Position numbers and translations under genes: made by a program
Shown: positions 4,864 to 35,362 of the stretch, in pieces
Position numbering within the stretch: the first letter of the stretch is position 1
Layout of the letters: each line of letters starts with the position of its first letter
From: a virus
Taxonomy: Duplodnaviria; Heunggongvirae; Uroviricota; Caudoviricetes
Length of the DNA: 47,287 nt
Virus record (IMG/VR): IMGVR_UViG_2870474514_000002
Strand: one strand, 5' to 3'
Notes under the pieces: model-generated
What the model saw: only the letters and a program-made list of their open reading frames with translations
What the model was told of the DNA's origin: nothing
Databases searched by the model: none

Positions 4864-4872
4864 ATTCACCCC

Positions 4873-4900
4873 ACAAAAAAGCCCGCCTGAAGCGGCGGGC
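4873..4900 (-). terminator. Intrinsic terminator-like hairpin downstream of lom, just upstream of the stf start
   Basis: Stem GCCCGCC / GGCGGGC with a 6-nt loop (4881..4900), followed on the minus strand by TTTTTT (4875..4880). Confidence 0.5.
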
Positions 4901-4927
4901 TGTCATAACACTGTGTTACCTGGCTAA

Positions 4928-15544: not shown

Positions 15545-15592
15545 TCAATGCGTCCCCCTGTAGGGCAGTACCACAGGAGGAATAACGGAAAA

Positions 15593-16555: not shown

Positions 16556-16581
16556 AGGAGCCTCCTATGTCATTAATTGCG

Positions 16582-16974
16582 CTAGAGCGCGCGATATGGA
16601 ATTTGAAGATTAAGCTGGAACCAGCCATTCTTTTCGCCAACGGCTATTGAGGAAACAGCCTGGTAACTGAGACGATCGTCATCCTGAAACTCAAACAGTT
16701 CCCGCAATTTATCGGCTGTCTCAGTAATGAGTTTTGAACCAGAACCTGCGGGGACAAATAACTGAATAATGATTATCCCCGTGCGATAAACAATCGGCCC
16801 CGCGCCAATTTCATTAACTCCAGCCTGCCCGGGAATATTACTTAACCGCGCCCAGATTAACTTACCGGAAGGATCGAACGTTGGCGCGTTCGGATACAAT
16901 ACGTCTTTTCCATCAATAATCGTCTGTGCCGTCATTCTGGAAATAACCGTATTTCTGATTTCAGTAAACGTCAT
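16582..16974 (-). CDS. Tail terminator / minor tail protein (gpU-like, by position)
   Basis: 130 aa ORF directly upstream of the major tail gene. Confidence 0.5.
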   Translation of the reverse strand: MTFTEIRNTVISRMTAQTIIDGKDVLYPNAPTFDPSGKLIWARLSNIPGQAGVNEIGAGPIVYRTGIIIIQLFVPAGSGSKLITETADKLRELFEFQDDDRLSYQAVSSIAVGEKNGWFQLNLQIPYRAL

Positions 16975-17351
16975 TTGTAAGCCTGTAAAACACCATGAAA
17001 AGCGTTGGCATACACGCCAGTTGGCGCTTGTTGTGAATGACCGTTTTCAAGAGCCTCTGCATAAGGAAGGTTATTCTGGATATAAATAACTCCGTAATTT
17101 GCAGCTTTCGAAATAACCCCGATCCCACGCTGAACCGCAATCGTACCGTTCGGATCCACGTTATCAGATATACCAAAATCGGGATGCTGTAACGACACCA
17201 GGTTGTTATTTCTGAAACGTCCGGTATCAACCGGAGCAGCAATATCAATAGCAGTAAGAATCTGCATAGCGATGTAGCGAATTTTCAGCCCCACATCTTC
17301 CTCAATCATCCCGGCAAATATTGACGGTTCTATATCCCATGCCTTTGCCAT
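16971..17351 (-). CDS. Tail completion protein (HK97 gp10-like, by position)
   Basis: 126 aa ORF in the head-tail joining block, overlapping the next gene by 4 nt. Confidence 0.5.
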   Translation of the reverse strand: MAKAWDIEPSIFAGMIEEDVGLKIRYIAMQILTAIDIAAPVDTGRFRNNNLVSLQHPDFGISDNVDPNGTIAVQRGIGVISKAANYGVIYIQNNLPYAEALENGHSQQAPTGVYANAFHGVLQAYK

Positions 17352-17735
17352 TTACGCTCTCCTTAACTGGATAGAGTAAACTGATGCGGAAGGATCTACA
17401 CTCGCTGTAATTACCTCGTATCGTTGTAACTGCCTTAATACAGGATCATAAATCTCAATAATATGGTCGACAGCGGGTTTATCCGTAACCTCGCATACCA
17501 GAGCGGTTAATTTAAGGTCACCATGCAAAATATTAATCCCATCAATTCTGCCCAGCTTATAACGTGTCAACACGCCTCGCCCGGTATAGATTGCGGTGGA
17601 TTCGCCGCCAGTTTCCGTCACAGGATCCCAGTGCCGGTGCGTAACGTAAGAACCAGAAAAATCACTCACGGCGTCCGCTAAATCCTCATCAAAAGCAGCG
17701 GCAACCTCTGACTGAATCTCTTCACGAAGCCCCAT
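17352..17735 (-). CDS. Head closure / head-tail adaptor protein (by position)
   Basis: 127 aa ORF, tightly packed with flanking genes. Confidence 0.45.
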   Translation of the reverse strand: MGLREEIQSEVAAAFDEDLADAVSDFSGSYVTHRHWDPVTETGGESTAIYTGRGVLTRYKLGRIDGINILHGDLKLTALVCEVTDKPAVDHIIEIYDPVLRQLQRYEVITASVDPSASVYSIQLRRA

Positions 17736-18130
17736 TATCCCCCCCTCACAACTCTGACTTGTGAGCGACTAAGTCCGTACGGTTTCAGCAGTGCTATCGC
17801 AAGCTGTAAATCGGGTTCAAGCAATACAGTGCTGTTTGCTGGCAACTCAGCAAATGATTTCGATACACTGACCCCGTCAGCCGACACGGCTTTACTGATA
17901 ACAACGCCAGAATCATTTTTCTGCTGAAACAACTTACCGAATGAGGCAATTCTGGCTGCATATGCTCCCGCAAGTTTTACCTCTTCCGGAATACGGGATG
18001 GGTTAATTTTCAGGTTGAAGCCATTAAGCCAGGCATTAGCCATCAAAACAGCTTTATTTTTAGCGTTCTCACTCGTCCAAGCGTTCCCAAACGCATTATC
18101 AACGTCATCACAGGTCACGTAAGTGATCAT
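17735..18130 (-). CDS. Head-tail connector protein (by position)
   Basis: 131 aa ORF that follows the capsid gene and the small ORF. Confidence 0.45.
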   Translation of the reverse strand: MITYVTCDDVDNAFGNAWTSENAKNKAVLMANAWLNGFNLKINPSRIPEEVKLAGAYAARIASFGKLFQQKNDSGVVISKAVSADGVSVSKSFAELPANSTVLLEPDLQLAIALLKPYGLSRSQVRVVRGG

Positions 18131-18133
18131 GTG

Positions 18134-18310
18134 TTACTCCTGAGTTTTCCAGCCCATAGCCTTCCAGTTGTCAACTTCATCAGGATGAACATTAGCGATA
18201 GTTGGTGCGCCGGGAAACATCTGATAATCGGTCACCATAACCACTAACTCAATTTGCGTTTTTTGTGCGGCTTCACGCTGTGCTCTTTGCTCTTTAGTTA
18301 ATCCGGCCAT
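18134..18310 (-). CDS. Small hypothetical phage protein (58 aa)
   Basis: Not in the ORF track (under 60 aa); translated by hand as MAGLTKEQRAQREAAQKTQIELVVMVTDYQMFPGAPTIANVHPDEVDNWKAMGWKTQE. GGAGGG SD 5 nt upstream of the ATG at 18310. Fills the gap between capsid and connector. Confidence 0.45.
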   Translation of the reverse strand: MAGLTKEQRAQREAAQKTQIELVVMVTDYQMFPGAPTIANVHPDEVDNWKAMGWKTQE

Positions 18311-18320
18311 ATGCCCTCCA

Positions 18321-18342
18321 TTAAAAATGGGGCCGAAGCCCC
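18321..18342 (-). terminator. Hairpin plus U-run immediately after the major capsid gene
   Basis: Stem GGGGC / GCCCC with loop TTCG, followed on the minus strand by ATTTTTAA; 11 nt after the capsid stop. Confidence 0.45.
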
Positions 18343-18352
18343 GTTTGAATGT

Positions 18353-19492
18353 TTAACCAAGAATCAGACAACCATGTGCCGGCTTCACTGATGAAACACC
18401 CCATGCCAGTCCAACTTCATAGCGCACCTGGCGATACTGACGATACAGTGCAATCTGGAACGTAATCCCTGAAATCGGGTCCGTAACATTCATTACATCA
18501 TCAGCATTATCGCCACCTTCCGGCATTGCCGGAGTACGGGATGCCAGCAGAAACGCGTTGCGATCAAACGCCATATTTGCAGTAAAGGAGCCAAGAACTG
18601 TGATTGCAGTATCATCGGCCAGATCCTGACGCAGTCCGGGCGCTGCAAGAGTAATCAGATTGCTGGTCGCTGCTGCCACAACATACTGATTCGGATCGCC
18701 AGCGAACGTAACAATCTGACCTGCAGAAATACTCCCCGAACCAGTATCAATGGAAATAAGAACATCGCCTTCTTTTTTCTCGCCATTCACGAGATAACCA
18801 GTTGCAGCAACCTTTGGCGCTCGTTTTACACCTGCCGAACTGTGAATATTGAATCCCTCCAGACGCCCCAACACGCCCTCACGCAGTAGCTGTTCAGTGC
18901 CGGATTCATTCACTTTAAACAGTACAGACTGTTTTCCGCGCAAATTAGCAATGGCAGTGGAGCCAAGCACCATCTGCAGATCGGTAGTCGGTGCGCCGTT
19001 ATCCTCCAGAACCTGACGAGCCAGAGCAGCATCAGAAAGATCATCTTTAACACCAAACGGCGTTGTCCCTGCGGTTCCCACGGCGCGGGAAGCACCGAAA
19101 TACAACGCACCAAGATCAGCCTCAACCTCGTTTGCAAGGGCGCGAAAAGCCTGCTTGAACTGATCAGCCAGAATGGTGTTGTAAGTCCCTGAAGGGCCAA
19201 GAGCCAGTTGTTCTTCACCATTCCATTTAACCGGTGCCATTTTGGATTTAGTAATTTTCACATCAACAGTGCCAATATTTTGATCACCGGTATTCGGAGC
19301 TGACGGCCCCGGTACGATATCTTCGGTTTTCGCCTCAGGCGCAACTGGCGCGGTTACCGTCTGATCTTTTGCTGCGGCGTCAGCTTTTGCGTTTTTTGCT
19401 ACCGCAGGGATAAAACCTACCTGCTCACGGGATACAATATCCAGGGCGGTATAAATAGTCGGGATCAACCCGGTCAGGGTATTTCCAGCCAT
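18353..19492 (-). CDS. Major capsid (coat) protein, P22-coat-like
   Basis: 379 aa from the internal ATG at 19492 (the 410 aa track ORF has an unlikely N-terminal extension). Follows the scaffold gene. A GQIVTFAGD segment resembles the P22 coat GDKISFAGV region. Confidence 0.75.
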   Translation of the reverse strand: MAGNTLTGLIPTIYTALDIVSREQVGFIPAVAKNAKADAAAKDQTVTAPVAPEAKTEDIVPGPSAPNTGDQNIGTVDVKITKSKMAPVKWNGEEQLALGPSGTYNTILADQFKQAFRALANEVEADLGALYFGASRAVGTAGTTPFGVKDDLSDAALARQVLEDNGAPTTDLQMVLGSTAIANLRGKQSVLFKVNESGTEQLLREGVLGRLEGFNIHSSAGVKRAPKVAATGYLVNGEKKEGDVLISIDTGSGSISAGQIVTFAGDPNQYVVAAATSNLITLAAPGLRQDLADDTAITVLGSFTANMAFDRNAFLLASRTPAMPEGGDNADDVMNVTDPISGITFQIALYRQYRQVRYEVGLAWGVSSVKPAHGCLILG

Positions 19493-19590
19493 AATTAAAT
19501 ATTCCTTAAAAATTTGCGTAATTGTGAATAGATGGAGTAATGAGCTATCCAGCCCTGACACCAGCTCCCATCCGGAAGCTGACAAATCTG

Positions 19591-20355
19591 TTAATCAACA
19601 ATTGTGATACCGTCTTTCAATGCGTTTTGCTTACCTGCAACATCCAGTGCATCAAAAGCAGAGCGTTTCATCGTTTTCTGACCAATATCATGCTGTGTCG
19701 GACGGGAGCCGCCGCCATTGTTGCCACTGGCTTTCAGGATGTAGTCTTTCTGAGGGTAATTTTCGACGAGGAACTCCAGCGCCTCATCAAACTGCGCCAG
19801 TTCGCCAGGCTTCGCGCGGGAATAAATTTTGTTGCCGGAAGCGTCATAAGCAACGATCTTCCCTTCTTCCACTTTGAATGCCTGCCCGAAGCGGGCTTGT
19901 AATAAATCTGCCGGGATCGCAATTTTATCGGCAATATATTTTGAACCCGCAAAACTACCGCCAATCATAGAATCGTAAAGCTGCGTCTCCAGCATCTGAG
20001 AGCGTTGCTTTTCTTCATCTAATTGCTGCTGAAAATTTTTCGTAATTTCTGCCTTAACCTGGTCAACCTGTCCCGCATCGATCAGCTTTTTCTGGTCGAT
20101 TTTTGACAGCATTTCCAGTGCCTCGATCGCCTTCTTCGGGTCTTCGATAGCGGCAAACTTAGCCAGTTTTTCCTCTGCAGCTTCTTTAGCCAGGCGATGA
20201 TTTTTTGCCTCGCCATTAAGCTCTGTAATTCTTTTTATCGCCAGCGGTGCATCGAAGCCGATTTCTTTACCATCGTCGTGCACATAAACTGGCAGGCCAA
20301 CAGTATCAATTTCTGCGTATTGTTTTCCGTTAATCTCGATCGTTTTCAGTTTCAT
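19591..20355 (-). CDS. Capsid scaffolding protein
   Basis: About 254 aa from the ATG at 20355 (MKLKTIEINGK), highly charged and helical (EEKLAKFAAIEDPKKAIEALEMLSKIDQKK). Lies between the head morphogenesis and coat genes. Confidence 0.6.
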   Translation of the reverse strand: MKLKTIEINGKQYAEIDTVGLPVYVHDDGKEIGFDAPLAIKRITELNGEAKNHRLAKEAAEEKLAKFAAIEDPKKAIEALEMLSKIDQKKLIDAGQVDQVKAEITKNFQQQLDEEKQRSQMLETQLYDSMIGGSFAGSKYIADKIAIPADLLQARFGQAFKVEEGKIVAYDASGNKIYSRAKPGELAQFDEALEFLVENYPQKDYILKASGNNGGGSRPTQHDIGQKTMKRSAFDALDVAGKQNALKDGITIVD

Positions 20356-20459
20356 ATTAGTACCTGGTTTAAGTCTTCCGACAGTTACGCTGCTCACCAT
20401 CCGGATCGCAGCAATAAAAAAGGCCACCCGAAGGTAGCCTGTTGTAATAAATGATTTAT

Positions 20460-21575
20460 TTAAATCCCTGCTTTTCTGAATACCTGTGCATCACGCTCAC
20501 GGAGTTGCTTCAGCGTCAGCCATTCGCCTTTATCGGTGTAAAATTCATCTGGCGACATACCGCCATCCCGAATCAGCTTTGCCCGGGTTTCCCCCACAAT
20601 CTGTTTTTGTCTGGTGTAAGGCTGACGCAAAAACCATTCCCTGTAGGTTGTATCTCCGGCCACCACGCCATCCATGCTGGCCCGCTCAACCGGGGAAATA
20701 TCACGAACATCAATACCCAGTTCCTTCGCTGATTTCAGAATGAACGTTTCCGTTGAGCGGCAGCAGAAATGAATTTTTCCCGGCCCATGCAAATAAGGCA
20801 CACTGTGACCTACAGGTTTATTATCCAGCGTATATTTGAGGCGATCCCTGATTCGACATTGTGGCGTAGTACGATTATCAAGCGTTGATAACCATTGCTT
20901 ACCCTTAATCAAATCATTATTCGCGCTGGCAAAACTCTCACGGGCAGTAGCAGCAAGATGTCCAACCGCTGTTTTTGCAATGCTGGCCGCATTAGCCCGG
21001 CTCATCTGCAATGCACCATCCTGAAATCCCTTGCTGACATGTCCCCGAATTTTTCTTGCGATCTGCTCATTGGTATCCCCCAGCAAAAAACCCTGACGCA
21101 CCGTATTTGTTATGCGTCTGAGCCGATCCGCCTCAAGATCCGAGGCCCACTCACTGAGCAGTCGTCCCTGGAATGGTCGCGCCATTGCAGCGGCGTAAAG
21201 TGCATCAGAAGATATACCAACCAGAGGGTGAACATCAGCAACAAAATCAGGTAGCAGAGAATCAAACAGACTTAACTGATAACCAGCCTCATAAATTGCC
21301 AGCTCGTTCAGCTCTCCGGAGAGACTGGTAAACATGCTGTTAATAGCAGCGCGGTTAACCTCTCTGACACTCGCCAGAAGTGACTCCAGGCGCGTAACGG
21401 TAAAACTACCAGGATCGAGGCTGTCCAGTGCTACCAGCAGGCGAGCTGTAAGCTCCGCATCGCTGTCATTCAGTATTTTCACCATTCTGGCAGCCACACC
21501 AGTGCTATAGCGGGATATCCAGACTACATGAGCAATTGATTCATCACGCAGCCGTTCATTCACGGTTTGCATCAT
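20460..21575 (-). CDS. Head morphogenesis protein (Mu F / SPP1 gp7 family minor head protein)
   Basis: 371 aa ORF directly downstream of the portal gene, overlapping it by 20 nt; position and size are typical of this family. Confidence 0.7.
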   Translation of the reverse strand: MMQTVNERLRDESIAHVVWISRYSTGVAARMVKILNDSDAELTARLLVALDSLDPGSFTVTRLESLLASVREVNRAAINSMFTSLSGELNELAIYEAGYQLSLFDSLLPDFVADVHPLVGISSDALYAAAMARPFQGRLLSEWASDLEADRLRRITNTVRQGFLLGDTNEQIARKIRGHVSKGFQDGALQMSRANAASIAKTAVGHLAATARESFASANNDLIKGKQWLSTLDNRTTPQCRIRDRLKYTLDNKPVGHSVPYLHGPGKIHFCCRSTETFILKSAKELGIDVRDISPVERASMDGVVAGDTTYREWFLRQPYTRQKQIVGETRAKLIRDGGMSPDEFYTDKGEWLTLKQLRERDAQVFRKAGI

Positions 21576-22962
21576 TGATTTCCATCAGCATTACACTCTG
21601 ATTTTTTAATTCATCGATCACTTCCTCTGGACGGGAATCCTGATCGATAAATTTCAACGCCTGCAACACCCGAACCGCATCAATCTGACGTATATCACCG
21701 CCCTGACGCAATGACTGAACAGCCAGCGCGGAGGATGAGTCAAACACCTGGGCAGATACATCCAGTTCAGTGCGCACATCCACATTGCCACCGCAACTCT
21801 CTCCGCTCCATTCCGCCATTATCTGGAGAATATTATCGAGGGCATCTTCGAGGGAGTTCGCCATTGTATAAAGCGGCGAGTGTTCCTGCATCCGCTCTTC
21901 ATTAGTCTGATCAACAGATTTGGTGGATGTATTTTCAGCCCGCAGAAGTTTAGCGCCGGCATGACGCATCTGATTTTCCAGCTTCTCAAGTGATGTTTCG
22001 CCAGATTCTATCGCTGCGCCACTATGTTCAACATATTCGAGGCCATTTTTTGTTCTGTCCTCAAAAATCGTAGCGGTGGATGCACCAACCGTCAGTTCTT
22101 CATTCCTGTCCAGCCCGTAGGCCACCAGCAATGGAACGCGGGCAACATGAAGAATATTGTCCTGCTCGCTCTGGCTTTGCCAGTGCTTGATATTCAGCAA
22201 GCCAAGATTAAGCAATGGCGGTGTACCACGCATAAACCCTGTTTTCTTCGTATACAGTGTTACCAGAGGAATATCATCACGGCTGGTATTCCATGACTCA
22301 TGAAGCATCCAGACAGATTCGCCATTAGTACCTTCGCTGCGTCGATAAATTTCTACTCGACGGGGCATAATATGGCGGATCTGCTCCACCTTCTTCTGCC
22401 CGAAATCATCACCATCAATAATGATGACCTCTTTTATACGCAAATCAGTGAGAACAACTTTCCCTTTTTCAACTTTCGATTTCCATCCAATAATCTGGCG
22501 TGGATTCAGCATCGTAACGTACGGGCGACCACCGGCCGCGTTTTCATCGGCTTTTGTCCGAATCTCGTTCATATCCGTTCGTGGATAGTCCACCAGCGCA
22601 TGTGCCACACCATACTGAAATGCGAGACTGAAAAATTGCTGCGCCCACACATCCAGTCGGCTCCCCTCCATGTCGATATTTTCTGCATATTCCCTGATTT
22701 TTTCCGGCGTTTCCTCACTCAATACTGTCGGCTCTGCAAATATGCGCCCAATATTTTGTTTGATGCTTTCTTCATACACAGGAAGTAGCGTAGCCACAGA
22801 CAGGCGTTTTTTATAAGCGTCTTCATCTTCATTAGGCCATTTGGGGAGATAATTTTCCCCCTGCCTGCGCATTTCAAGCGTACCGCCCATCAATGCGTCG
22901 TTAATATCCCACGCCTCCAGCATATCGTTATAGTCGAGGTTGGGTGTTGATATATCAGCCAT
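21556..22962 (-). CDS. Portal protein
   Basis: 468 aa ORF immediately downstream of terL with a 2-nt gap and an acidic C-terminus. Confidence 0.8.
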   Translation of the reverse strand: MADISTPNLDYNDMLEAWDINDALMGGTLEMRRQGENYLPKWPNEDEDAYKKRLSVATLLPVYEESIKQNIGRIFAEPTVLSEETPEKIREYAENIDMEGSRLDVWAQQFFSLAFQYGVAHALVDYPRTDMNEIRTKADENAAGGRPYVTMLNPRQIIGWKSKVEKGKVVLTDLRIKEVIIIDGDDFGQKKVEQIRHIMPRRVEIYRRSEGTNGESVWMLHESWNTSRDDIPLVTLYTKKTGFMRGTPPLLNLGLLNIKHWQSQSEQDNILHVARVPLLVAYGLDRNEELTVGASTATIFEDRTKNGLEYVEHSGAAIESGETSLEKLENQMRHAGAKLLRAENTSTKSVDQTNEERMQEHSPLYTMANSLEDALDNILQIMAEWSGESCGGNVDVRTELDVSAQVFDSSSALAVQSLRQGGDIRQIDAVRVLQALKFIDQDSRPEEVIDELKNQSVMLMEINDANRE

Positions 22963-22964
22963 AA

Positions 22965-24275
22965 TTAAATCCGAAGTGATGTGACTCTTCCGGTCGGTTT
23001 GACAATAGGGAATTGCTTAACGATGAAATAACCTCCGGCATCATTCGGGTGATCATTGCCAGATTTTTTATCAGGCTCCCCCTTATCATCCCAGACCTGT
23101 TGCTCCAGAGATTCGGCATATACCGGACAACGCTTCACATTAACTTTATAGCGACGCTCACCATTGGCATTGCAGAACATTGCATTCATTGAGTTAACGC
23201 GATCTTTTACTGGAGGGTTCGAGCTGTTCACCACAACGTTAAAACCTGCCTGCTTAAGCTGGGCTATATCCGTCGTACTTGCGTTACTTGATTTTCTGGA
23301 ATCTCCGGAAGCATCTGGATAAATATAAATCTCCCTCACTTTCCGGTAATCATGCCCGTCATACAGCCAGAAGCGTTCTTTAATGAGGCGGATCATATCC
23401 GGCGTATCGTAGGCATTGATGATTTCAGTTACCGCACATGGAAGCCCCAAACGCAGCACATGGACGATTCCCGCCATCTTTCCAACGTTAAAATCCATCC
23501 CAATATAAATCGGCTCCCCTAGCTGCTCCACTTCTTCGCAATTATTCAGTTTCCGGTCAAACTGATGGTAAACAGTACCACTTGTCAGGTTAGTAAACCG
23601 TCCTAGAAGATAGGCTTTAATCAGCTCTGGAGGGTATGATTCAAGAAGTGAAGGAATGTAATCTGCTGGCAGGTTCTTTTCATTATCGAAAGTAGATGCC
23701 TGCACCAGACCATACAGTGAGGCCAGCTCTGTTTTTTCACGCACGGCTTTAACAAACTGCTCGTAGACAAATTTGAATCCTTCCGGCGTGGTTGTAACGT
23801 CAATACCGTTGCGAAGTCCATCAATCTTATAACGCATACGCGCAATTATCTTGCGCCACGCCGTTCTGGCTTTTTCCTTCGGCAAAATGTCCAGTTCATC
23901 CACCAGCGCATTACCAATTTTGAAACCGACGATCGTTTGTGGCTTCTCCATCGATCTGCAGATAGTGGTTCCCCGATACTGGCGTCCGTAATAAAAGTGA
24001 ACCTCTTTATTTCCCTCATTAATTTTTACGTTCAATCCCCAGTCAGCAGCAACTTCTTCCACTGTAGGGTAAAAAATATCGCGAATTTGGGGATACGTTG
24101 GCGCAAAATATCCCTGATTTATACTTGGATGCTCCCAAATCCCCTTGCATATGCCGCCACACCCAACCCATGTTTTGCCCGAGCCAAAACCAGCAATATA
24201 GGCTTTAAATTTATGGGGCATTGAAAGAAATCGCGCCTGAGGCACATTAAGCGTCGGAGAGATCATCTTCATCAC
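22965..24275 (-). CDS. Terminase large subunit
   Basis: 436 aa with a Walker A-like GFGSGKTW near the N-terminus and acidic nuclease-type motifs in the C-terminal half. The start overlaps terS. Confidence 0.85.
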   Translation of the reverse strand: MMKMISPTLNVPQARFLSMPHKFKAYIAGFGSGKTWVGCGGICKGIWEHPSINQGYFAPTYPQIRDIFYPTVEEVAADWGLNVKINEGNKEVHFYYGRQYRGTTICRSMEKPQTIVGFKIGNALVDELDILPKEKARTAWRKIIARMRYKIDGLRNGIDVTTTPEGFKFVYEQFVKAVREKTELASLYGLVQASTFDNEKNLPADYIPSLLESYPPELIKAYLLGRFTNLTSGTVYHQFDRKLNNCEEVEQLGEPIYIGMDFNVGKMAGIVHVLRLGLPCAVTEIINAYDTPDMIRLIKERFWLYDGHDYRKVREIYIYPDASGDSRKSSNASTTDIAQLKQAGFNVVVNSSNPPVKDRVNSMNAMFCNANGERRYKVNVKRCPVYAESLEQQVWDDKGEPDKKSGNDHPNDAGGYFIVKQFPIVKPTGRVTSLRI

Positions 24276-25341
24276 TCCTTAATCTGGCATCAACCACATT
24301 AATATTGATCGCCACAGGCTGGGGATGTTCATTATCCTCCACCGTTTCGATCTCTTTGCGCAGCTTCTGGTTTTCTATTCTGCGCCGTTCAATTTCCAGT
24401 TCCTGTAGCCGCTTATCTGCACATAATGCCCCGCCAGCAGAAAGCAAACGCAACAATTCACGCCGGGCGGCAGCCTTATCCTCCAGCAGGATCTCAACAC
24501 CGTATTTTCCGAGCTTTGACCCTGCATATAATTGCCGCGCATCCCCATCAAGCAGTGTGGTATCAGCCATATAAAGCTGTCCCGTTCCCTCACCGCAGCA
24601 CTTCGGGCAATCAGGATTGGGTATGGCGTTATCAACAAAGCCGATGCCTCCATATTCCGGCTCGGGTTTACCATCTCTGGAGGCCTGTGCCGCAGCCTTA
24701 TCGAATTCTGCAATATCACGCCACTGGTAGAGATGATTCTCGCCCCAGCAATAACGGCAGTTAACACGGCGAAATTGTGCCAACTGATTGGGGTCGGCCT
24801 GGACAATGGCCATCAACTGGCTCACCAGTAAATCCAGGTCTGCGGTATAGCGTTTCTGGTACTGATTGCGGAAGTAGCTGATAGCACGATAAACCCTGGC
24901 ATTTCTAAGCATACGGCTGGCGTTGCTGTTAGCTGTCGCACCTTGCCCCTCATAACCAGCCAGTCGGTATGCCTCTGTCGGCTTTTTCCCCTGAGCAACC
25001 AACATGGCGAATTTTGCCTGCTGGTCAGAAATACCGAATTCATCGGGGCAGAACGAAATTTCTTCCGTGTCCCCCTCAATCAGGAGTGCATCGGATACAG
25101 CCTTTTTTTTCTGAGATTTTCCGTTCTGCCTTTGCGCAGTCTGCGCAGTTTTTTTTCGCGCACTTTTTTGCGCAGTTTTGCGCATTTCTTTCTGCGCATT
25201 TTTCGGAGTTTTTTTGATGTAACGACGGGCTGTTGCGTAGTTCAGTCCCCTTGCTTCACACCATGCCACCGGAGATATACCGGAGCGGGTGTATTCAGCA
25301 ATATACTCCTGCTGCAACGCCCCCCAGTCCGGTCTGCTCAT
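24247..25341 (-). CDS. Terminase small subunit (unusually long)
   Basis: 364 aa: an N-terminal HTH-like segment (ISPVAWCEARGLNYATARRYIKK), a Lys-rich linker, a central region resembling P27-type small terminase (DQQAKFAMLVAQGKKPTEAYRLAGYE), a Cys cluster (CRYCW...CPKCCGEG) and a C-terminal coiled coil. Confidence 0.6.
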   Translation of the reverse strand: MSRPDWGALQQEYIAEYTRSGISPVAWCEARGLNYATARRYIKKTPKNAQKEMRKTAQKSARKKTAQTAQRQNGKSQKKKAVSDALLIEGDTEEISFCPDEFGISDQQAKFAMLVAQGKKPTEAYRLAGYEGQGATANSNASRMLRNARVYRAISYFRNQYQKRYTADLDLLVSQLMAIVQADPNQLAQFRRVNCRYCWGENHLYQWRDIAEFDKAAAQASRDGKPEPEYGGIGFVDNAIPNPDCPKCCGEGTGQLYMADTTLLDGDARQLYAGSKLGKYGVEILLEDKAAARRELLRLLSAGGALCADKRLQELEIERRRIENQKLRKEIETVEDNEHPQPVAININVVDARLRSDEDDLSDA

Positions 25342-25344
25342 CAG

Positions 25345-25596
25345 TTAGTCCTGATTTTTATCCACCCTGAGTAGTTCGCGCAGAGCAAAGGCATCCCCTT
25401 TTCTGGCAAGCTTAAACAATGCCGCTCGTAACTCGGCTTCACCTTTCGCTCTGCCCTTACGGATGGCCGCATAAAAATCTGTCATTGCTTCCCGATTTTC
25501 TTTCAGTCGGTTCAGATCAACATCCAGAACGTCAGCGATTTGTTGTGCAGTCATCCGGCACGCTGCCAGAGACTCGACTTTCGAATACGGAATCAT
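25345..25596 (-). CDS. Small HTH-like DNA-binding protein (83 aa), packaging-associated by position
   Basis: GGGGGTGA SD upstream of the ATG at 25596. MTAQQIADVLDVDLNRL helix-turn-helix-like segment. Stop is 1 codon before the terS ATG. The 5' end overlaps the 3' end of the GT-A-like gene by 65 nt. Confidence 0.5.
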   Translation of the reverse strand: MIPYSKVESLAACRMTAQQIADVLDVDLNRLKENREAMTDFYAAIRKGRAKGEAELRAALFKLARKGDAFALRELLRVDKNQD

Positions 25597-26464
25597 TTGT
25601 CACCCCCATTGATATGCAGGGTGTCTTCTTCCTGTATTTTTCGTGAAGGATTTTTACTGCAGCGTTGTTCCAGGTGACCTGATGGTGAATGCGTTTATGG
25701 CTGGCACCCATCAGTGAGATTTTTACGCACGACGGCGAATACATGACGGAGTAAAAACTTTTAACGTAGGTTCCGGAATCCAGATACAGCTCGGTCATTC
25801 CGCCGCTGTTTTTCTGCGTCTGCTTCTGCCCTAACTGGACAGCACCGATCGTCATAAACAATTCACCACAGCGACCGAGATTCGTGTACGTATTCACATC
25901 CTCGTTAATGCGCCCCATGAATGAGAACGGTCGATCAACCGAACAGATAAAGCTGTTCATTGCCTTGCGTTTCACCCACGAAGCATGGCCGCCATTGTCA
26001 CCAAGAAAATCCCCGCCCTGCGACATAGCGATGGAAAGCGCGGGTATTGATTCGTAATACGCCAGCATTTCAGAAAGGATCGCATCCAGTTTCCTTATCG
26101 GGAAATAGGCCTGGTCATAGTTGCGATCCACCCGAAACTGGAACTCGTGATAATCATCATCGAGCTGAATGAAGTATTTACACCCGACCAGTTTTGCCAG
26201 GTCGAAACAGGCATTACGGGCGTAAAAAATTGAGCGGCGGTCACCAAAATTATCGGCTTCGTCAAAACGACTAGCAATATCGGCTTTGGAAAATACCAGC
26301 ACCTGTTCACCAAATTCAGCCATGTACTGATGCCGTGTCTTATCTTCATCATCAACAACGATAAAAATTTTCCCGGTATAGCCAGCACGACGCAACGTCC
26401 GGTAAGTCAGAACTTTGTCCGGTCGCCCGTGAGTCAGAATAAAGGCGCAAAAATCATCACGCAT
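25532..26464 (-). CDS. GT-A-fold-like putative nucleotide-sugar transferase (possible full-length ydaY)
   Basis: 310 aa from the ATG at 26464, which has a GGAGGAGGAGGAGG SD and overlaps the ParB-like stop (ATGCGTGA). N-terminal beta-alpha-beta AFILTHGRPDKVLTYRTLRR then acidic IFIVVDDEDK and a DxD-like IQLDDDY. Family assignment is from motif inspection only. Confidence 0.5.
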   Translation of the reverse strand: MRDDFCAFILTHGRPDKVLTYRTLRRAGYTGKIFIVVDDEDKTRHQYMAEFGEQVLVFSKADIASRFDEADNFGDRRSIFYARNACFDLAKLVGCKYFIQLDDDYHEFQFRVDRNYDQAYFPIRKLDAILSEMLAYYESIPALSIAMSQGGDFLGDNGGHASWVKRKAMNSFICSVDRPFSFMGRINEDVNTYTNLGRCGELFMTIGAVQLGQKQTQKNSGGMTELYLDSGTYVKSFYSVMYSPSCVKISLMGASHKRIHHQVTWNNAAVKILHEKYRKKTPCISMGVTNDSVFESRVSGSVPDDCTTNR

Positions 26465-27251
26465 ATTCCTCCTCCTCCTCCCCGCCATGCATGATCTCCA
26501 CCATGCGCTGCGTCATTCGGACAAATCCATTTTCAATAGCCTGCTGATAATCAATGATCACCAGCGCCGACTCCTCGAAAAGGCACTGAATTTCAGCGGG
26601 GGCATGAGCGTAATAGTCCGCAATTCTGCTGAAATTGAACACCGTGTGACGTTCTGCCGCACACAGGAGGAATTTCTCAATATCAGGATCAAGGGACGCC
26701 GAACGTATCCGGCTGATCAGCTCCTGAGTTTTCGTATCGTCGTACAGTTCACGGATATCCGGTTTACCGCCCGACGGCTCATAAACAGGCGTATCAATTT
26801 TCGTCGTATACGGCTCCTCCTTATTTCCTGTACCGGACAAAACATCCGTCAACAGTTCATCAATTTCTGTCGGGCCGAAGCCTGTCAGGGAGACATCAAA
26901 ATCAGCATTGATTAGGTCCGACAGCTCCATCCGCAACAGATCTTCATCCCAGCCAGCATTCATCGGCAGGCGATTATCTGCCAGGCGGTACGCCTTTTTC
27001 TGCTCATCCGTCAGGCCAGACAGAACAATGACCGGAACAGAATCCATTTTGAGCATTTCAGCCGCCATAACACGATCGTGACCCGCAATAATTTCGCCCT
27101 TTTCGTCAATCAGCACCGGATTAGTCCAGCCGAATTGCTTAATACTTTCTACCAGTTGTGCCACCTGCTCAGTACTGTGCGTCCTGGCGTTGTGCGCATA
27201 CGGTGACAATTCTTGTAATGGGCGATAGACTATCTTTAATTTCTCGCTCAT
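26457..27251 (-). CDS. ynaK: ParB N-terminal (ParB/sulfiredoxin nuclease-like) domain protein
   Basis: 264 aa with a ParB-box-like NPVLIDEKGEIIAGHDRVMAA near the N-terminus and an acidic tail (GGEEEEEYA). K-12 ynaK appears to be a short fragment of this gene. Confidence 0.75.
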   Translation of the reverse strand: MSEKLKIVYRPLQELSPYAHNARTHSTEQVAQLVESIKQFGWTNPVLIDEKGEIIAGHDRVMAAEMLKMDSVPVIVLSGLTDEQKKAYRLADNRLPMNAGWDEDLLRMELSDLINADFDVSLTGFGPTEIDELLTDVLSGTGNKEEPYTTKIDTPVYEPSGGKPDIRELYDDTKTQELISRIRSASLDPDIEKFLLCAAERHTVFNFSRIADYYAHAPAEIQCLFEESALVIIDYQQAIENGFVRMTQRMVEIMHGGEEEEEYA

Positions 27252-27388
27252 ACAGCCTTGCTTTATGAATAAAACGCACCCCAGCAGCCAGTGCTACTGG
27301 GGGCGGAGGTGTTGCTGGTAAAGTTAGGTATTGGATCAATGAGTGAGTCAACATAATATTAAACTCACAATTATAAATCAGCCATATA

Positions 27389-28846
27389 TTAGGAGCGCCA
27401 AAAAAAACCTGAAAATAATATAATAACAGGATAAATTTCAAGGCGACCAAGAATCATAGCTATGCACATTAAATATTTTGCAATGTCATTAAGCACTCCG
27501 AATGACGATGCAGTAGCCCCAAAACCTAATCCCATATTATTAATACATGCAGCCACTGTTGCAAATGATGTAAGAAAATCATATCCCATACCATTTAACA
27601 CCAGTATAAAAAACACCGTGAAGAGAGTATAAAGAAAAAAGAAACTCCATACAGACCTCATTACACGATCTGTAACTATCTTCCCTCCTACATTTACACT
27701 CAACAACGCTCTGGGATGAGAAAGCTGATTTATCTCGTGTTTGCTTTGTTTGAAAAGTATAAGAAATCGAAGTGACTTAATTCCACCACAAGTTGAACCT
27801 ATACATCCCCCAAAGAAACTTGACAACAGCAAAAATACTATCGTGTGCGTGGGCCAGTTTGCATAATCTTGCGTAGCTAAACCATTATCAGTGAGCATGG
27901 AGCTGGCAAGAAAAAACGAATGAATAAAACTTCCATGCAAGTCATACATACCTATATGCCAGACCTGGAAAGAGGTAACAATGATCACCACTAAGGCTAT
28001 TAACAGAAAGAAACGAAGTTCAATATCTCTGATTAAAGGTTTTATCGTTTTCCTGCTAATAACAATATACCAAAGAGTGAAGTTGAAAGCCGATAGCAGG
28101 GAAAAAGAACCAGCCACCAGCTCAACCAAATAGTTATTAAAATATCCGATACTCTCGCTATGAGTTGAGAAACCACCAAGCGAAACTGTGGAAATCCCGT
28201 GACAAATAGCATCAAACAAAGGCATTCCTGCAAGTCTATAACAGACAATACAAGCAATACCTAATAAAGAATAAGTTATCCACAGTGTCCGTGACGTATC
28301 GGCCAGGCGGGGAGTGAGTTTGTCATCCTTAAATGGCCCCGGCATTTCTGACTGATAAAGCTTTGCACCACCAATACCCAATAATGGCAATACAGCAACC
28401 GCCAGAACAATAACTCCTAAACCACCTATAAAATTTAACTGTGACCGATAGTACAAATATGCCCGAGGTAATGAACTAACATCATCAATTACAGTTGCTC
28501 CTGTTGTTGTTATTCCAGAAACCCCTTCAAAAAGAGCATCAATGAACGTTAAATTAAGTTCTGAGTCAATCCATAAAGGGAATGCACTAATAACAGAAAA
28601 CAAAATCCAAAACATTACAATTATAATAAACCCATCACGGGTACGTAATTGAATGCCAGATTTCTTAGTTGTATACCACGCTCCGCCACCAATGCAAAAA
28701 AATATAACGAAGGTTATAAAGAAAACGAACAGGCTTTTTTCTTTATAAAACAATGCTACAACCATTGGTGGCAACATTGAAAGACTATAGAGCCAAACCA
28801 GGAACCCACACATATGAGTAACAACTCTTACATGAGATGTATTCAT
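27389..28846 (-). CDS. trkG: TrkG/TrkH-family potassium uptake protein
   Basis: 485 aa from MNTSHVRVV, polytopic membrane protein with the repeated glycine selectivity-filter-like motifs of Trk/Ktr transporters (GITTTGATV, SLGGFSTHS). AT-rich relative to the flanking phage genes. Confidence 0.9.
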   Translation of the reverse strand: MNTSHVRVVTHMCGFLVWLYSLSMLPPMVVALFYKEKSLFVFFITFVIFFCIGGGAWYTTKKSGIQLRTRDGFIIIVMFWILFSVISAFPLWIDSELNLTFIDALFEGVSGITTTGATVIDDVSSLPRAYLYYRSQLNFIGGLGVIVLAVAVLPLLGIGGAKLYQSEMPGPFKDDKLTPRLADTSRTLWITYSLLGIACIVCYRLAGMPLFDAICHGISTVSLGGFSTHSESIGYFNNYLVELVAGSFSLLSAFNFTLWYIVISRKTIKPLIRDIELRFFLLIALVVIIVTSFQVWHIGMYDLHGSFIHSFFLASSMLTDNGLATQDYANWPTHTIVFLLLSSFFGGCIGSTCGGIKSLRFLILFKQSKHEINQLSHPRALLSVNVGGKIVTDRVMRSVWSFFFLYTLFTVFFILVLNGMGYDFLTSFATVAACINNMGLGFGATASSFGVLNDIAKYLMCIAMILGRLEIYPVIILFSGFFWRS

Positions 28847-28983
28847 ATCTAAATATTCTTTCAATTATAACCACCTTGCTGCAATATTATGATTATACTG
28901 TATAAAATTTAACTCCTCTTAGATCTTACTTCACTGTTCCTTATGAAACAATCATCAAAATAAATCATATTGTAGTTAAGATT

Positions 28984-30935: not shown

Positions 30936-31010
<75 letters not shown>

Positions 31011-31013
31011 ATA

Positions 31014-31089
<76 letters not shown>

Positions 31090-33237: not shown

Positions 33238-33742
33238 AGTAGCCACATGATAAGTTGCTGGAATCATGTTTCCCACTCAAGTCATTAACATTTGATTAAG
33301 ACATATCTAAAAGGATGCCTTTACATTATTTGATGCATATATGATTTATTTATATGCACAGTAAAGGCACCCTGGGAATAATCAAGATTAATGATATATT
33401 ACTTATCCTATTCCCAACTGTCTTTTACCTGGGAAAACATTTATCGTTAAAAAATATATCATAAATAATTAAGCTGAAATTTCAGAACACAACTAATGCA
33501 CACAATAAGGTTCAGTAACATTAATCTATGTGGAATACATCGAGATTTCTTGATTAAGCTTTAATAACTTATTCCTAACACACAGAATGCATAAACCAAA
33601 AGCAAAACAAGTAGTTATACGAAAAACAACCATATTTATCCTATCTTCTCCTCTAATCAACATATCAATTATGTGTTTCATAAGAGCTTGACATAACTCC
33701 TCAAAAGGTGCATTTATAATACATGTTTTATAGGAGGTGGTT

Positions 33743-34081
33743 ATGACACACAAGAGAATTCCTAAAGATTGGGTAATCAAACGCTCAACTCCGTTCTTCA
33801 CAAAAGAGAACGTACCTTCAGCGTTATTAACACATCATAATACAGCAGCAGGTGTTTTTGGGCAGTTGTGCGTAATGGAAGGCACTGTAACATATTATGG
33901 TTTTGCTGATGAGAATACTACTGAACCAGAGATAAAAGTAGTTATTAATGCTGGCTCTTTTGCAACAAGCCCACCACAATACTGGCACCGTGTTGAACTA
34001 AGCGATGATGCTCAGTTTAATATTAACTTTTGGGTCGCTCCAGACTTCTCAGGCGAAAAAGTCTATAGCACCAAAAAATAG
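33743..34081 (+). CDS. YeaR-like protein (DUF1971, TehB-associated domain family)
   Basis: 112 aa from the ATG at 33743, with an AGGAGG SD 5 nt upstream. Motifs RSTPFF...P, GVFGQLCVMEGTVTYYGFADE, INAGSFATSPPQYWH and FNINFWVAP match my recollection of E. coli YeaR. Confidence 0.7.
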   Translation: MTHKRIPKDWVIKRSTPFFTKENVPSALLTHHNTAAGVFGQLCVMEGTVTYYGFADENTTEPEIKVVINAGSFATSPPQYWHRVELSDDAQFNINFWVAPDFSGEKVYSTKK

Positions 34082-34693: not shown

Positions 34694-35362
34694 TCATTCC
34701 TGCCCTTCTTCTTTACCGTAGTGGAGTTGACCAATTTTGATAAGAGGGCGTCCCTGGGATTTGCGGTGTAAATTGGTATCGCGAAGTGAATACACGCAAC
34801 CACAATATTCCTGCTGATAGAATTGTTCGCGTTTGCTGATTTCAATCATGCGGGACGAGCCTCCCTGCTTGCGCCAGTTATAATCCCAGTACACCATGCC
34901 CGGATAATGTGCGACAGCTCGCCGTCCGCTGTCGTTAACCTGCTGCATATTTTTCCAGCGTGAAATGCCCAGTGAACTGCTGATCACACTGAAACCATTT
35001 TCAGCGGCGTACAGCGCCGTCCGTTCAAAACGCATGTCAAAACACATAGTACAACGCCTCCCACGTTCGGGCTCCCATTCCATTCCTTTGGCTCGCTCAA
35101 ACCAGTTGTCAGTGTCGTAATCAGCATCGATAAACGGTACACCATGTTGTTCAGCAAATCGAATATTCTCATTCTTACGAATCAAATACTCTTTCTGAGG
35201 ATGAATGTTCGGATTATAGAAGAAGATGGTGTAGTCGATTCCTGAGGCCTGAAGAGCCTCCATCACTTCACCGGAACATGGTGCACAACAAGAGTGCAAT
35301 AGTAGTTTGTTTGCCCCGTTTGGGAGCTCCAACTTAGGACGTTTGAAATCAGCAACTGTCAT
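34694..35362 (-). CDS. QueH-like protein (DUF208, epoxyqueuosine reductase family)
   Basis: 222 aa with the N-terminal [11 protein letters not shown] motif and later Cys motifs ([19 protein letters not shown]) that I associate with DUF208/QueH iron-sulfur enzymes. Confidence 0.7.

Follow-up and report, generated by a model that had tools for sequence, protein, structure and literature searches.

What do the genes between the trkG moron and the terminase genes of this Rac-like prophage do, and what is the acceptor of their predicted glycosyltransferase (GT)? The window, that is, the whole stretch of 47,287 nucleotides that we analyzed, carries at this place a ParB-like gene, a GT gene and a small HTH gene. 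An initial annotation had read the three as one module, with the working hypothesis that it serves virion-DNA modification or anti-restriction, or acts as a pac-recognition accessory. Our literature search returned nothing relevant on a ParB-TAGT pairing or on the function of ynaK, the remnant of the ParB-like gene in K-12.

Layout and translational coupling of the locus

An open reading frame check recovered the three module genes at the coordinates in Table 1 and placed the ParB-like (partner), GT, small HTH, terS and terL genes all on the minus strand. As the initial annotation had described, the stop of the partner gene and the start of the GT gene share ATGCGTGA behind a strong Shine-Dalgarno (SD) sequence, GGAGGAGGAGGAGG, which stands immediately before it. 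The DNA encoding the EEEEE tail of the partner doubles as the GGAGG-repeat SD of the GT gene. This coupling is real: of the related loci in which we could resolve where the GT begins, 111/111 have an overlap of 1-11 nt between partner stop and GT start. Since the overlap is kept in every one of these loci and 867 of 5426 complete E. coli genomes carry the partner-GT module intact, the coupled layout is more than chance. An in-frame ATG further upstream opens a longer GT reading frame to 26488; the 310-aa start has the support of homologues, whose first residues are MRDDF. The small HTH reading frame overlaps the 3' end of the GT gene by 65 nt and runs into terS through a TAA-CTG-ATG junction, and so both the overlap and the stop one codon ahead of terS had been called correctly. 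We prefer the 83-aa HTH start over the 69-aa PGAP call because the N-terminal 14 aa are conserved among homologues.

Table 1 Features of the partner-GT locus and its surroundings, in window positions
Feature	Position	Strand	Basis or content
Terminator-like hairpin, between trkG moron and ParB-like gene	27279..27302	-	10-bp stem, 7 GC pairs, T-run
ParB-like partner gene, 264 aa	26457..27251	-	N-module, linker, CTD, acidic tail in order
Partner N-module, aa 1-135	26847..27251	-	ParB/Srx NTP-binding fold and short helical segment
Partner C-terminal domain (CTD), aa ~145-255	26487..26819	-	Domain without annotation; no Pfam/NCBIfam family
Partner acidic C-terminal tail, HGGEEEEEYA	26460..26486	-	Sequence; recurs in homologues
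Coupling element: SD (26468..26481) and stop/start overlap (26457..26464)	26457..26481	-	
GT gene, 310 aa, TAGT-family GT-A	25532..26464	-	Profile matches, fold, homologue alignment
Small basic HTH gene, 83 aa	25345..25596	-	phrog_309 terS 8e-23 and co-occurrence pattern
terS, 364 aa	24247..25341	-	Terminase_2 1.3e-8; phrog_51 7e-75
terL, 436 aa	22965..24275	-	Terminase_6N 7e-33; Terminase_6C 8e-11

The hairpin upstream of the partner gene is a predicted terminator that appears to insulate the partner-GT module from moron (trkG) transcription. Together with the place of the pair ahead of terS/terL, a late-operon position, this separation from trkG is consistent with late expression. In K-12, a BLAST junction map showed that the Rac deletion corresponds to window 15435..26997, and given this span ynaK comprises ~85 codons from the beginning of the ParB-like gene. 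The second fragment that had been assigned to this locus, ydaY, corresponds to the gene flanked by those for the tail tube and the tape measure (window ~15083..15544); it lies outside the locus and was ruled out as a GT remnant by the same map.

The glycosyltransferase and its partner

A Pfam profile search matched the GT to PF20691 (TET-associated glycosyltransferase, TAGT) at an E-value of 5.5e-35 and 121.6 bits against a 27.5-bit cutoff, with GT aa 8-222 aligned to profile positions 4-205 of 205, and a PHROG search matched it to phrog_842 (E 1.4e-103). Foldseek searches with AlphaFold models of both proteins had been proposed in the initial annotation. For the 310-aa GT (AF2 model, pTM 0.70), they returned a GT-A fold, and all of the best matches were GT-A enzymes; those in the PDB were LARGE1, ColGalT1, GnT-I, SpsA, GalNAc-T2 and glycogenin (E 5e-5 to 1e-3, probability ~1.0). 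The earlier GT-A call was right and can be sharpened to the TAGT family, which was reportedly defined by Iyer and colleagues in 2013; the peptides that it had singled out (AFILTHGRPDK, IVVDDEDK and QLDDDY) are present in the protein. When we aligned 25 homologues with identity down to 59%, R14, D38/D41, D102-D103-D104, E188-D189 and H260-H261 were invariant, as were the complete motifs D102-D103-D104-Y105 and N187-E188-D189-V190, the third motif being EDV rather than EDY/F. The resulting R..DDD..ED set matches the one reported for JGT, the base-J glucosyltransferase of trypanosomes, and for phage GT-A enzymes that modify DNA. Invariance of the catalytic residues implies that the GT is under selection for activity, and, judged from family membership and intact catalytic motifs, it appears catalytically competent. 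Residues 216-282 are conserved and modeled at low confidence, while aa ~283-310 form a non-conserved, E. coli-specific extension. A PDB sequence search with the GT profile gave no match, hence there is no solved relative among PDB sequences, and PADLOC, which covers defence systems, matched neither the GT nor the small HTH protein.

The partner was ParB-like, as claimed, by three measures. It matched PF02195 (ParB_N; E 4.5e-7, 30.3 bits vs a 26.3-bit cutoff), its profile matches among PDB sequences were Noc, ParB and Spo0J, and Foldseek with the model of the 264-aa protein found Noc, CTP-bound ParB, PadC and KorB at ~1e-6, the full-length matches being dominated by the N-module. Serine-kinase and sulfiredoxin structures were also among the Foldseek matches. 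Secondary structure and the pLDDT profile give the protein an NBD-helices-linker-CTD layout. We found neither an HTH nor a ParB_C Pfam match in it, and TIGR00180 reached 37.9 bits against a cutoff of 58.45 bits and covered aa 11-94 alone. Box II reads A56-G57-H58-D59-R60, with the GxxR arginine retained and the GERR glutamate changed to His. Across 149 representatives, the box II glycine occurs in 125 of 127 non-gap sequences and the arginine in 101 of 126, and the Glu position is held by His (80) or Asn (37). CTP hydrolysis by ParB requires the GERR glutamate. Neither the annotated prophage nor the neighborhoods that we inspected contained a ParA ATPase. With GERR, a parS-binding HTH, the canonical C-terminal dimerization domain and ParA all missing, the partner does not fit the partition ParB of a ParABS system. 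The protein has a pI of 4.5 and a net charge of about -24, and such a strongly acidic protein without HTH is unlikely to bind DNA alone. The low pI, the lack of an HTH and the His or Asn in place of the GERR Glu are observations against a DNA model.

The N-module belongs to a type found in 439 phage records, many of them labeled adenine methyltransferases (MTases), and it matches the phage DNA MTase families phrog_498 (1.3e-50) and PADLOC MTase_II (2.8e-38). In phage ParB-N-DNA MTase fusions of these two families (orphan N6/N4 enzymes), the homologous segment covers aa ~3-141 (E 1e-38 to 1e-50), and the fusion genes occupy the same niche just upstream of terminase as the present pair. There, the module is covalently joined to a catalytic domain that methylates canonical A or C, whereas here it is joined to an adaptor CTD and the catalytic GT is a separate, translationally coupled protein.

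The CTD itself spans ~110 aa with the extremely conserved consensus YTxKIxxPIYEP...FLxxAAxRHTVF...IAEYYAHA...SALVIIDF..AIENGF, in which 149/149 representatives share Y157, R201, A211 and D234 without exception; an acidic C-terminal tail follows in 99/149. No Pfam or NCBIfam family matched it, and PF23887 alone recurred below threshold (E 0.007-0.05). From its distribution, the CTD, not ParB-N, is the constant partner of the GT clade. CTD-only partners occur in jumbo Vibrio phages, pv27 among them, and in several contigs, showing that the core function does not need the ParB/Srx pocket, and in a Porphyromonas phage the CTD is still detectable beside a GT of only 27% identity. In a mirror-tree comparison of divergent pairs, the N-module tracked the GT at a rho of 0.56, and on this ground we dropped the idea that N-modules are freely swapped. 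The lower value for CTD versus GT (0.23) reflects the saturated identity of the CTD (sd 0.038).

A conserved pair and the missing acceptor pathway

Pairing of the CTD with the GT is obligate: a partner homologue stands immediately upstream of the GT in 87/87 GT-seeded loci, and every CTD-seeded locus (79/79, or 77/77 when only loci with space downstream are counted) carries the GT. The initial annotation had counted three genes, but the conserved unit is the partner plus the GT. The small HTH protein matches phrog_309 terS over profile positions 145-218 of 319 at an E-value of 8.3e-23, and its gene was found only in enterobacterial GT-seeded loci, followed in almost every case by a homologue of the window terS. 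It was absent from every GT-seeded locus with another terminase type. By this pattern it belongs, as an accessory, with the Terminase_6-type packaging genes rather than with the pair. Sequence identity of partner and GT stays at 40-60% across E. coli, Lactobacillus, Nocardia, Vibrio and haloarchaeal viruses, which points to an acceptor that is universal, DNA for example.

The pair is carried by ~600 viral contigs. We found no recognized source of 5hmC or 5hmU (TET/JBP with C5-MTase, ThyS-like hydroxymethylase or a primary alpha/beta-GT) in the window, which covers the Rac-like prophage, in two complete phage genomes or, among the best 25 of 50 Pfam families, in six divergent loci. In the window, PGAP annotation and a Pfam search of 22 non-structural ORFs (E < 3e-4) revealed no TET/JBP, ThyS-like hydroxymethylase or C5-MTase, and each scanned non-structural ORF of at least ~100 aa was confidently placed in another family. 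Two complete annotated phage genomes, jlb1 at 38 kb and c5 at 32 kb, contain no TET/JBP, thymidylate-synthase-like or C5-methyltransferase gene, and their non-structural regions have no unassigned ORF longer than ~210 aa. Among 139 ORFs of the six divergent loci, no hydroxymethyl-pyrimidine source appeared among the best 25 of 50 Pfam families. To our knowledge, known TAGT and JGT reactions all need a hydroxyl on 5hmC, on 5hmU or on a sugar already attached to them, and E. coli DNA has no 5hmC/5hmU pathway. With the acceptor pathway absent, ordinary hmC glucosylation is very unlikely to be the answer. A glycosylated queuosine, suggested by the QueH and tRNA genes of the prophage, was also rejected, as these genes lie 8 kb off and are missing from other pair-carrying phages; we know of no queuosine in haloarchaea.

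The characterized relatives of the GT, namely the T2/T6 beta-glucosyl-HMC-alpha-GT, phage 5hmC GTs and JGT, have DNA substrates. The founding TAGT, the T2/T6 enzyme, is also phage-encoded and shares PF20691, the PHROG annotation, the GT-A fold, a DxD-type motif and presumably a UDP-sugar donor with our GT. However, it is a remote relative that tblastn did not recover at 1e-5, the nearest T4-like match being that of Aeromonas phage Ah1 at 24.7% identity. Moreover, the T-even enzyme adds a second glucose onto alpha-glucosyl-5hmC from a dCMP-hydroxymethylase plus alpha-GT pathway, which is absent here. The TAGT gene of Ah1, a T4-like phage, has no CTD partner within 3 kb, and the present clade thus differs from this hmC-pathway type. 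The R..DDD..ED motif set is shared with JGT and the phage 5mYOX/TET-associated GT-A enzymes, which act post-replicatively at the polymer level and are often encoded near ParB-like and terminase genes. Unlike the present clade with its obligate CTD partner, the 5mYOX/TET-associated GTs adjoin a C5-MTase and a TET/JBP (or T-dioxygenase) that make the hydroxymethyl acceptor.

Earlier surveys left many GTs of this kind unexplained: ~65% of ~25,000 GT-containing contigs were without a recognized pathway in one study, and 288 of 753 GT-bearing phages in another carried 'solitary' TAGT-type GTs. For a large share of these solitary TAGTs, our results supply a signature, an obligate ~110-aa domain that is usually fused to an MTase-type ParB module. 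They also add evidence that the usual TAGT acceptor pathway is truly absent, with an example that sits in an E. coli prophage.

Candidate acceptors and the role of the partner

For 5mYOX to act on dsDNA, it needs as activators ParB-like proteins that lack a DNA-binding domain (PNAS 2026, PMC13229309). Compared by description, ParB176 of the 5mYOX176/ParB176 system (PMC13229309) and our partner share the order of NBD, short helices, disordered linker and CTD and a gene beside that of the enzyme, and Noc, MxParB and PadC are Foldseek neighbors of both. The client differs, being a dioxygenase there and a glycosyltransferase here, and in our clade a CTD can be the partner by itself.

At somewhat less than even confidence, we favor the reading that partner and GT form a two-component, late-expressed, partner-dependent DNA glycosylation module whose acceptor is neither 5hmC nor 5hmU. 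The GT, with its TAGT/JGT-like active site, would be the catalytic subunit and would draw on a nucleotide-sugar donor for the sugar that it transfers. The acidic partner would bind the GT through the conserved CTD, and translational coupling would set a fixed partner:GT ratio. The ParB/Srx N-module may be the adaptor or activator, dependent on NTP, through which the GT gains productive access to replicated double-stranded phage DNA, much as ParB-like proteins activate one subclass of phage thymine dioxygenases. The sugar would be added to phage DNA shortly before or during packaging and so shield it from the nucleases of the next host. Because the phage makes no 5-hydroxymethyl-pyrimidine, the acceptor would have to be something other than 5hmC or 5hmU. 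We infer DNA as the acceptor, the partner as activator of the GT and anti-restriction as the function; the DNA-modification or anti-restriction hypothesis of the initial annotation is compatible with everything that we found.

A bolder form of this proposal, which we consider unlikely but worth stating, is that the pair represents a new enzyme class. It would place sugar directly onto a canonical, non-hydroxymethylated component of dsDNA, for example a purine exocyclic amine or ring nitrogen, the CTD giving an access to the acceptor that hydroxymethyl-dependent TAGTs do not need. We know of no Leloir glycosyltransferase that acts on canonical DNA. If this were true, the virions of Rac-like phages, which ~16% of complete E. 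coli genomes carry, would contain an unrecognized DNA glycosylation that would extend to many bacterial and haloarchaeal viruses. Any DNA acceptor of the pair would mean new DNA modification chemistry, with a bearing on restriction and type IV evasion, phage therapy host range, base-calling artefacts and enzymatic DNA labeling. It would also widen the principle of 'ParB as activator of DNA-modifying enzymes' from dioxygenases to glycosyltransferases.

Glycosylation of protein, which we hold to be distinctly unlikely, would turn the ParB-like protein from a DNA adaptor into a substrate or a scaffold. The GT would act on its own partner, for example on Tyr148/Thr149/Tyr157 of YTxKIxxPxYEP in glycogenin style, or on a packaging or virion protein. 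Two invariant Tyr and one Thr/Ser are indeed among the most conserved partner residues and lie in a segment modeled as disordered; the pair adjoins head and packaging genes, and no DNA acceptor pathway was found. Glycogenin and peptide GalNAc-transferases are among the Foldseek matches, though these are generic GT-A matches. GREB1 belongs to the same GT family, and its TAGT-family GT domain O-GlcNAcylates ER-alpha (PMC7968844). PGAP calls the window GT a 'GREB1-related protein', but GREB1 is a 1949-aa cytoplasmic animal protein (PMC7968844) and, unlike the window GT, has neither a ParB/CTD partner nor a viral context. That a TAGT-family member glycosylates protein is an observation against a DNA model. 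Conversely, the GT keeps its 40-60% identity between viruses that differ in the families of their terminases, portals and capsids. Such conservation makes a phage-specific protein acceptor unlikely and leaves only the partner as conserved enough. The N-module is moreover of the kind fused to DNA methyltransferases, and the pair of jumbo phages lies among replication rather than structural genes. A protein acceptor, if true, would give GREB1-type protein glycosylation its first counterpart in a virus.

Some other universal acceptor, such as RNA, a nucleotide or a small molecule, seems to us improbable. The GT could then modify a nucleotide from the ParB/Srx pocket or a host immune-signaling nucleotide, in an anti-defence or metabolic role unrelated to virion DNA. 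ParB/Srx folds include some small-molecule kinases and bind ATP, GTP or CTP, and the missing 5hmC/5hmU acceptor counts here too. In five loci, a His-phosphatase and cytidylyltransferase-like fusion gene is inserted between partner and GT. This nucleotidyltransferase/phosphatase gene would suit a nucleotide acceptor, and it is also a plausible, putative donor-synthesis gene. However, CTD-only partners show that the pocket is dispensable, the MTase-type N-module gave the sole PADLOC match, and position and late-expression pattern fit DNA-modifying enzymes. We also know of no TAGT-family member that acts on small molecules.

Conventional TAGT chemistry on 5hmC or 5hmU, or on a sugar attached to them, is very improbable in our view. 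It would be in keeping with the PF20691 membership and PHROG annotation, and the acceptor would come from the host, a co-resident element or an unrecognized phage enzyme; in the six divergent loci, where the best 25 of 50 Pfam families for the 139 ORFs were covered, a TET/JBP match may have been missed. Against it stand the lack of TET_JBP, ThyS and C5-MTase genes in the window, jlb1 and c5, the lack of an E. coli source and the Ah1 TAGT, which follows the hmC pathway without a nearby CTD partner.

We give hardly any credence to a packaging or partition accessory, in which the ParB-like protein would mark the pac/cos region or organize DNA for terminase and the GT would be incidental or inactive: the pair is directly beside terS/terL in most phages, and ParB has been suggested elsewhere to steer DNA-modification machinery to specific sites during packaging, but the catalytic residues of the GT are invariant and the partner lacks an HTH/parS-binding domain, a ParA and a TIGR00180 score above cutoff. 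The pure pac-recognition role that had been proposed is likewise unlikely, since across bacterial and haloarchaeal viruses one and the same pair precedes terminases of four different and unrelated families, of the cos as well as the pac type. Jumbo Vibrio phages have the pair amid primase, exonuclease and helicase genes with no adjoining terminase.

Organization of the locus

The window holds an intact Rac-like prophage of the lambdoid type, running from side tail fibre genes at one end to an integrase at the other, and the genes of interest lie on its minus strand. With an annotated copy of 99.9% identity as our guide, we read the minus strand, 5′ to 3′, as lysis cassette, trkG, hairpin, ParB-like gene, glycosyltransferase (GT) gene, a gene for an 83-aa helix-turn-helix (HTH) protein, terS, and terL. 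The gene junctions described in the initial annotation were all seen in the sequence: ATGCGTGA joins the stop of the ParB-like partner to the GT start, GGAGGAGGAGGAGG precedes this overlap, the 83-aa gene overlaps the 3′ end of the GT gene (by 65 nt), and its junction with terS reads TAA-CTG-ATG. GGAGGAGGAGGAGG doubles as the coding sequence for the EEEEE tail of the partner.

Table. Features of the locus, with positions in the window
Feature	Position	Strand
trkG moron	27389..28864	-
Terminator-like hairpin, between trkG and ParB-like gene	27302..27279	-
ParB-like partner gene, 264 aa	27251..26457	-
GT gene, 310 aa	26464..25532	-
83-aa HTH gene	25596..25345	-
terS	25341..24247	-
terL	24275..22965	-

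The HTH gene had been counted as the third member of a module with the other two. However, its product is limited to enterobacterial loci, is followed by a terS homologue in almost every case, and matches a terS PHROG; it belongs to the packaging module rather than to the partner-GT pair. The overlap with the GT gene is due solely to a nonconserved 3′ extension in the E. coli GT: the final ∼28 residues are specific to E. coli, and GT homologues are mostly 283 to 297 aa long. PGAP calls the small gene as 69 aa (25345..25596 (-) in the window; 20046..20255 in strain GPEC657, L001). Since homologues at 58 to 66% identity keep the 14 residues with which the 83-aa form begins, the longer start is probably correct. 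At the other end of the locus, morons insert between the lysis genes and the partner gene, a site held by trkG in E. coli and by a heat-labile-enterotoxin-like A/B pair (Enterotoxin_a and LT-IIB) in a Yersinia prophage contig (L006, 2180..3332), and empty in the sibling locus L007.

The glycosyltransferase and its partner

The 310-aa protein matched Pfam PF20691 (TET-associated glycosyltransferase, TAGT) with an E-value of 5.5e-35 (121.6 bits, cutoff 27.5) and phrog_842 at 1e-103; PGAP at present names it "GREB1-related protein." In Foldseek, the top PDB neighbours of its AF2 model (pTM 0.70) were all GT-A enzymes. Across 25 homologues, with identity down to 59%, the invariant residues were R14, D38/D41, D68-E69-x-D71-N72-F73, D102-D103-D104-Y105, E188-D189, and H260-H261, which is the R..DDD..ED motif set of the base-J glucosyltransferase and of phage GT-A enzymes that modify DNA. 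Profile, fold, and motifs alike make the protein a PF20691 member, so the GT-A call first made by motif inspection was right, and the enzyme appears to be active.

The ParB-like call was likewise borne out at the level of fold. The N terminus of the partner is a ParB/Srx fold, matching ParB_N (E 4.5e-7), Noc/ParB/Spo0J in PDB profiles, and CTP-bound ParB, Noc, PadC, and KorB in Foldseek at about 1e-6. We rejected a partition ParB, since we found neither an HTH in the partner nor an accompanying ParA, Box II is GHDR rather than the GERR of ParB, the score against the full-length ParB model is below that model's cutoff, and the protein is very acidic (pI 4.5, net charge about -24). Judged by its sequence matches, the first ∼140 residues (N-module) correspond specifically to the module found fused to DNA methyltransferases in phages: they matched phrog_498 (1.3e-50), PADLOC MTase_II (2.8e-38), and 439 phage records, many with an adenine methylase annotation. 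Such fusions occupy the same genomic niche as the pair, and in layout and position the partner also resembles 5mYOX ParB activators. In Escherichia phage vB_EcoM-613R2 (L175), a 196-aa protein (3935..4525) with an N-module sharing 61% identity with that of the window adjoins the terminase on its upstream side without a CTD (the partner's C-terminal domain) or GT, and a second ParB-like gene is followed by a nuclease gene (646..2642). This suggests that several client enzymes of different kinds use the N-module at one genomic position.

The constant companion of the GT is the CTD (residues ∼145-255), rather than the ParB fold. We found no Pfam or NCBIfam family for it; a search of 1.84 billion proteins gave 1193 cluster representatives at E ≤ 1e-3, in which it is C-terminal without exception. 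Y157, R201, A211, and D234 are the same in all 149 representatives compared, and some fifteen more positions are kept in at least 143. In 87/87 GT-seeded loci the gene directly upstream encodes a partner homologue, one locus (L078) having a CTD-only gene downstream instead. Conversely, GT was present in 79/79 CTD-seeded loci (77/77 where downstream room exists), usually within 50 nt. Vibrio jumbo phage pv27, like several contigs, has a CTD-only partner (130-150 aa), and in a Porphyromonas phage the GT is merely 27% identical, yet the order ParB(CTD)-GT-terS-terL is kept. In a T4-like Aeromonas phage, no CTD was found within 3 kb of the TAGT that belongs to the hmC pathway. In all 111 loci with a resolvable GT start, the stop of the partner gene overlaps that start by 1 to 11 nt. 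In the monomer models, highly conserved segments are of low confidence in both proteins (partner 137-159 and 232-264; GT 216-282), a hint that the two may fold on each other. An acidic tail follows the CTD (net charge ≤ -3 over the last 15 residues) in 99 of the 149 aligned homologues; in E. coli (window 26460..26486) its GAG/GGA codons are also the Shine-Dalgarno sequence for GT.

Distribution and decay

Of 5426 complete E. coli genomes, 867 carry the module intact, as do ten deposited genomes of E. coli and Salmonella phages. Homologues of the pair at 40 to 60% identity were found in Klebsiella, Salmonella, Yersinia, and Pantoea prophages, Lactobacillus phages jlb1, c5, LL-Ku, Ld17, and phiLdb, Nocardia phage NTR1, and haloarchaeal virus HHTV-2. 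The pair usually lies immediately upstream of terS/terL, although the terminase families behind it differ (Terminase_6, Terminase_3, TerL_ATPase with Terminase_4 and HNH, and others). In phage c5 the two are the first genes after cos, whereas in jumbo Vibrio phages they sit among primase, exonuclease, and helicase genes.

In K-12 (MG1655 1421000-1433000), an 11.6-kb deletion corresponding to window 15435..26997 removed GT, terS, terL, portal, head, and tail-tube genes and fused codon ∼85 of the ParB-like gene directly to ydaY. Of the two K-12 fragments previously assigned to this locus, only ynaK, the first ∼85 partner codons, is a remnant of the pair; ydaY is an unrelated tail-region gene. 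Because of this loss, K-12 is unsuitable for testing the pair, which is otherwise common and can be tested directly in E. coli. An IS3-family element splits the ParB-like gene in several E. coli strains (genome hits H9-H15; the match spans ∼3.2 kb and the gene is annotated twice), and PGAP annotates it in GPEC657 as an incomplete ynaK pseudogene, which indicates ongoing decay in some lysogens.

The acceptor

All characterized TAGT reactions place a sugar on 5hmC, 5hmU, or a sugar already on them, with the exception of animal GREB1, which O-GlcNAcylates a protein (PMC7968844). Two recent papers leave "solitary" TAGTs explicitly unexplained, and we found no description of ParB/CTD-TAGT pairing in the literature. 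What is new here is an obligate CTD partner combined with an absent acceptor pathway. The GT lacks the family's contextual hallmark, a linked hydroxymethyl-pyrimidine source: by annotation and Pfam, there was no gene able to make 5hmC/5hmU and no TET_JBP, thymidylate synthase, or C5-methyltransferase match among the prophage's non-structural ORFs down to about 100 aa. All of these ORFs were confidently assigned elsewhere (RecE, RecT, QueH, YdaU, YdaV, YdaT, a DUF1133 protein, a Q-like antiterminator match, YbcO, lysis genes, and several DUFs). Nor were hydroxymethyl-pyrimidine genes found in the complete genomes of jlb1 (38 kb) and c5 (32 kb), or among the best 25 of 50 families in 139 ORFs of six divergent loci.

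We tentatively favor, at a little under even odds, a late-expressed two-component nucleic-acid glycosylation enzyme. GT would be the catalytic subunit and the CTD its obligatory subunit, while the N-module, dependent on NTP, would serve as its adaptor or activator for phage DNA in double-stranded form; acting before or during packaging, the enzyme would leave DNA protected in the next host. DNA as acceptor is argued for by the chemistry known for the family, the methyltransferase type of the N-module and the niche held in common with ParB-methyltransferase fusions, the replication-gene surroundings in jumbo phages, and a cross-domain conservation that demands a universal acceptor. It also draws on a 2026 study in which phage thymine dioxygenases were activated on dsDNA by ParB-like proteins that have no DNA-binding domain (PMC13229309). 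Genuine sugar transfer is further supported by an ∼322-aa His_Phos_1 and CTP_transf_like fusion lying between the partner and GT genes in five loci (L131, L134 at 4338..5306, L136, L137, and L165), plausibly a candidate nucleotide-sugar donor-synthesis enzyme travelling with the module. The weakness of the DNA model is that the acceptor would need to be something new; direct glycosylation of a canonical base seems doubtful, at about one chance in four.

Protein glycosylation, for which GREB1 is the family precedent, is somewhat less probable still; the partner's own invariant YTxKIxxPxYEP segment would be the particular target. Some other universal, non-DNA acceptor is improbable. Conventional hmC/hmU chemistry would require the base to be supplied in trans, given the gene searches described here, and we regard it as quite improbable. 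Least credible is a packaging or partition role with GT incidental or inactive: the pair usually adjoins the terminase, but the partition-ParB identity was rejected and the catalytic motifs are invariant. Genuine sugar transfer is further supported by an ∼322-aa His_Phos_1 and CTP_transf_like fusion lying between the partner and GT genes in five loci (L131, L134 at 4338..5306, L136, L137, and L165), plausibly a candidate nucleotide-sugar donor-synthesis enzyme travelling with the module.

The nin/late-regulatory region of the prophage also carries a QueH epoxyqueuosine reductase gene (Pfam E 1e-65), a DUF1971 cupin-like gene, tRNA-Gly(UCC), and tRNA-Thr(UGU) (34694..35362 (-), 33737..34081 (+), and 30936..31089 (-)). 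We found no link between this set and GT, and it is possibly a phage tRNA-modification or translation moron set.
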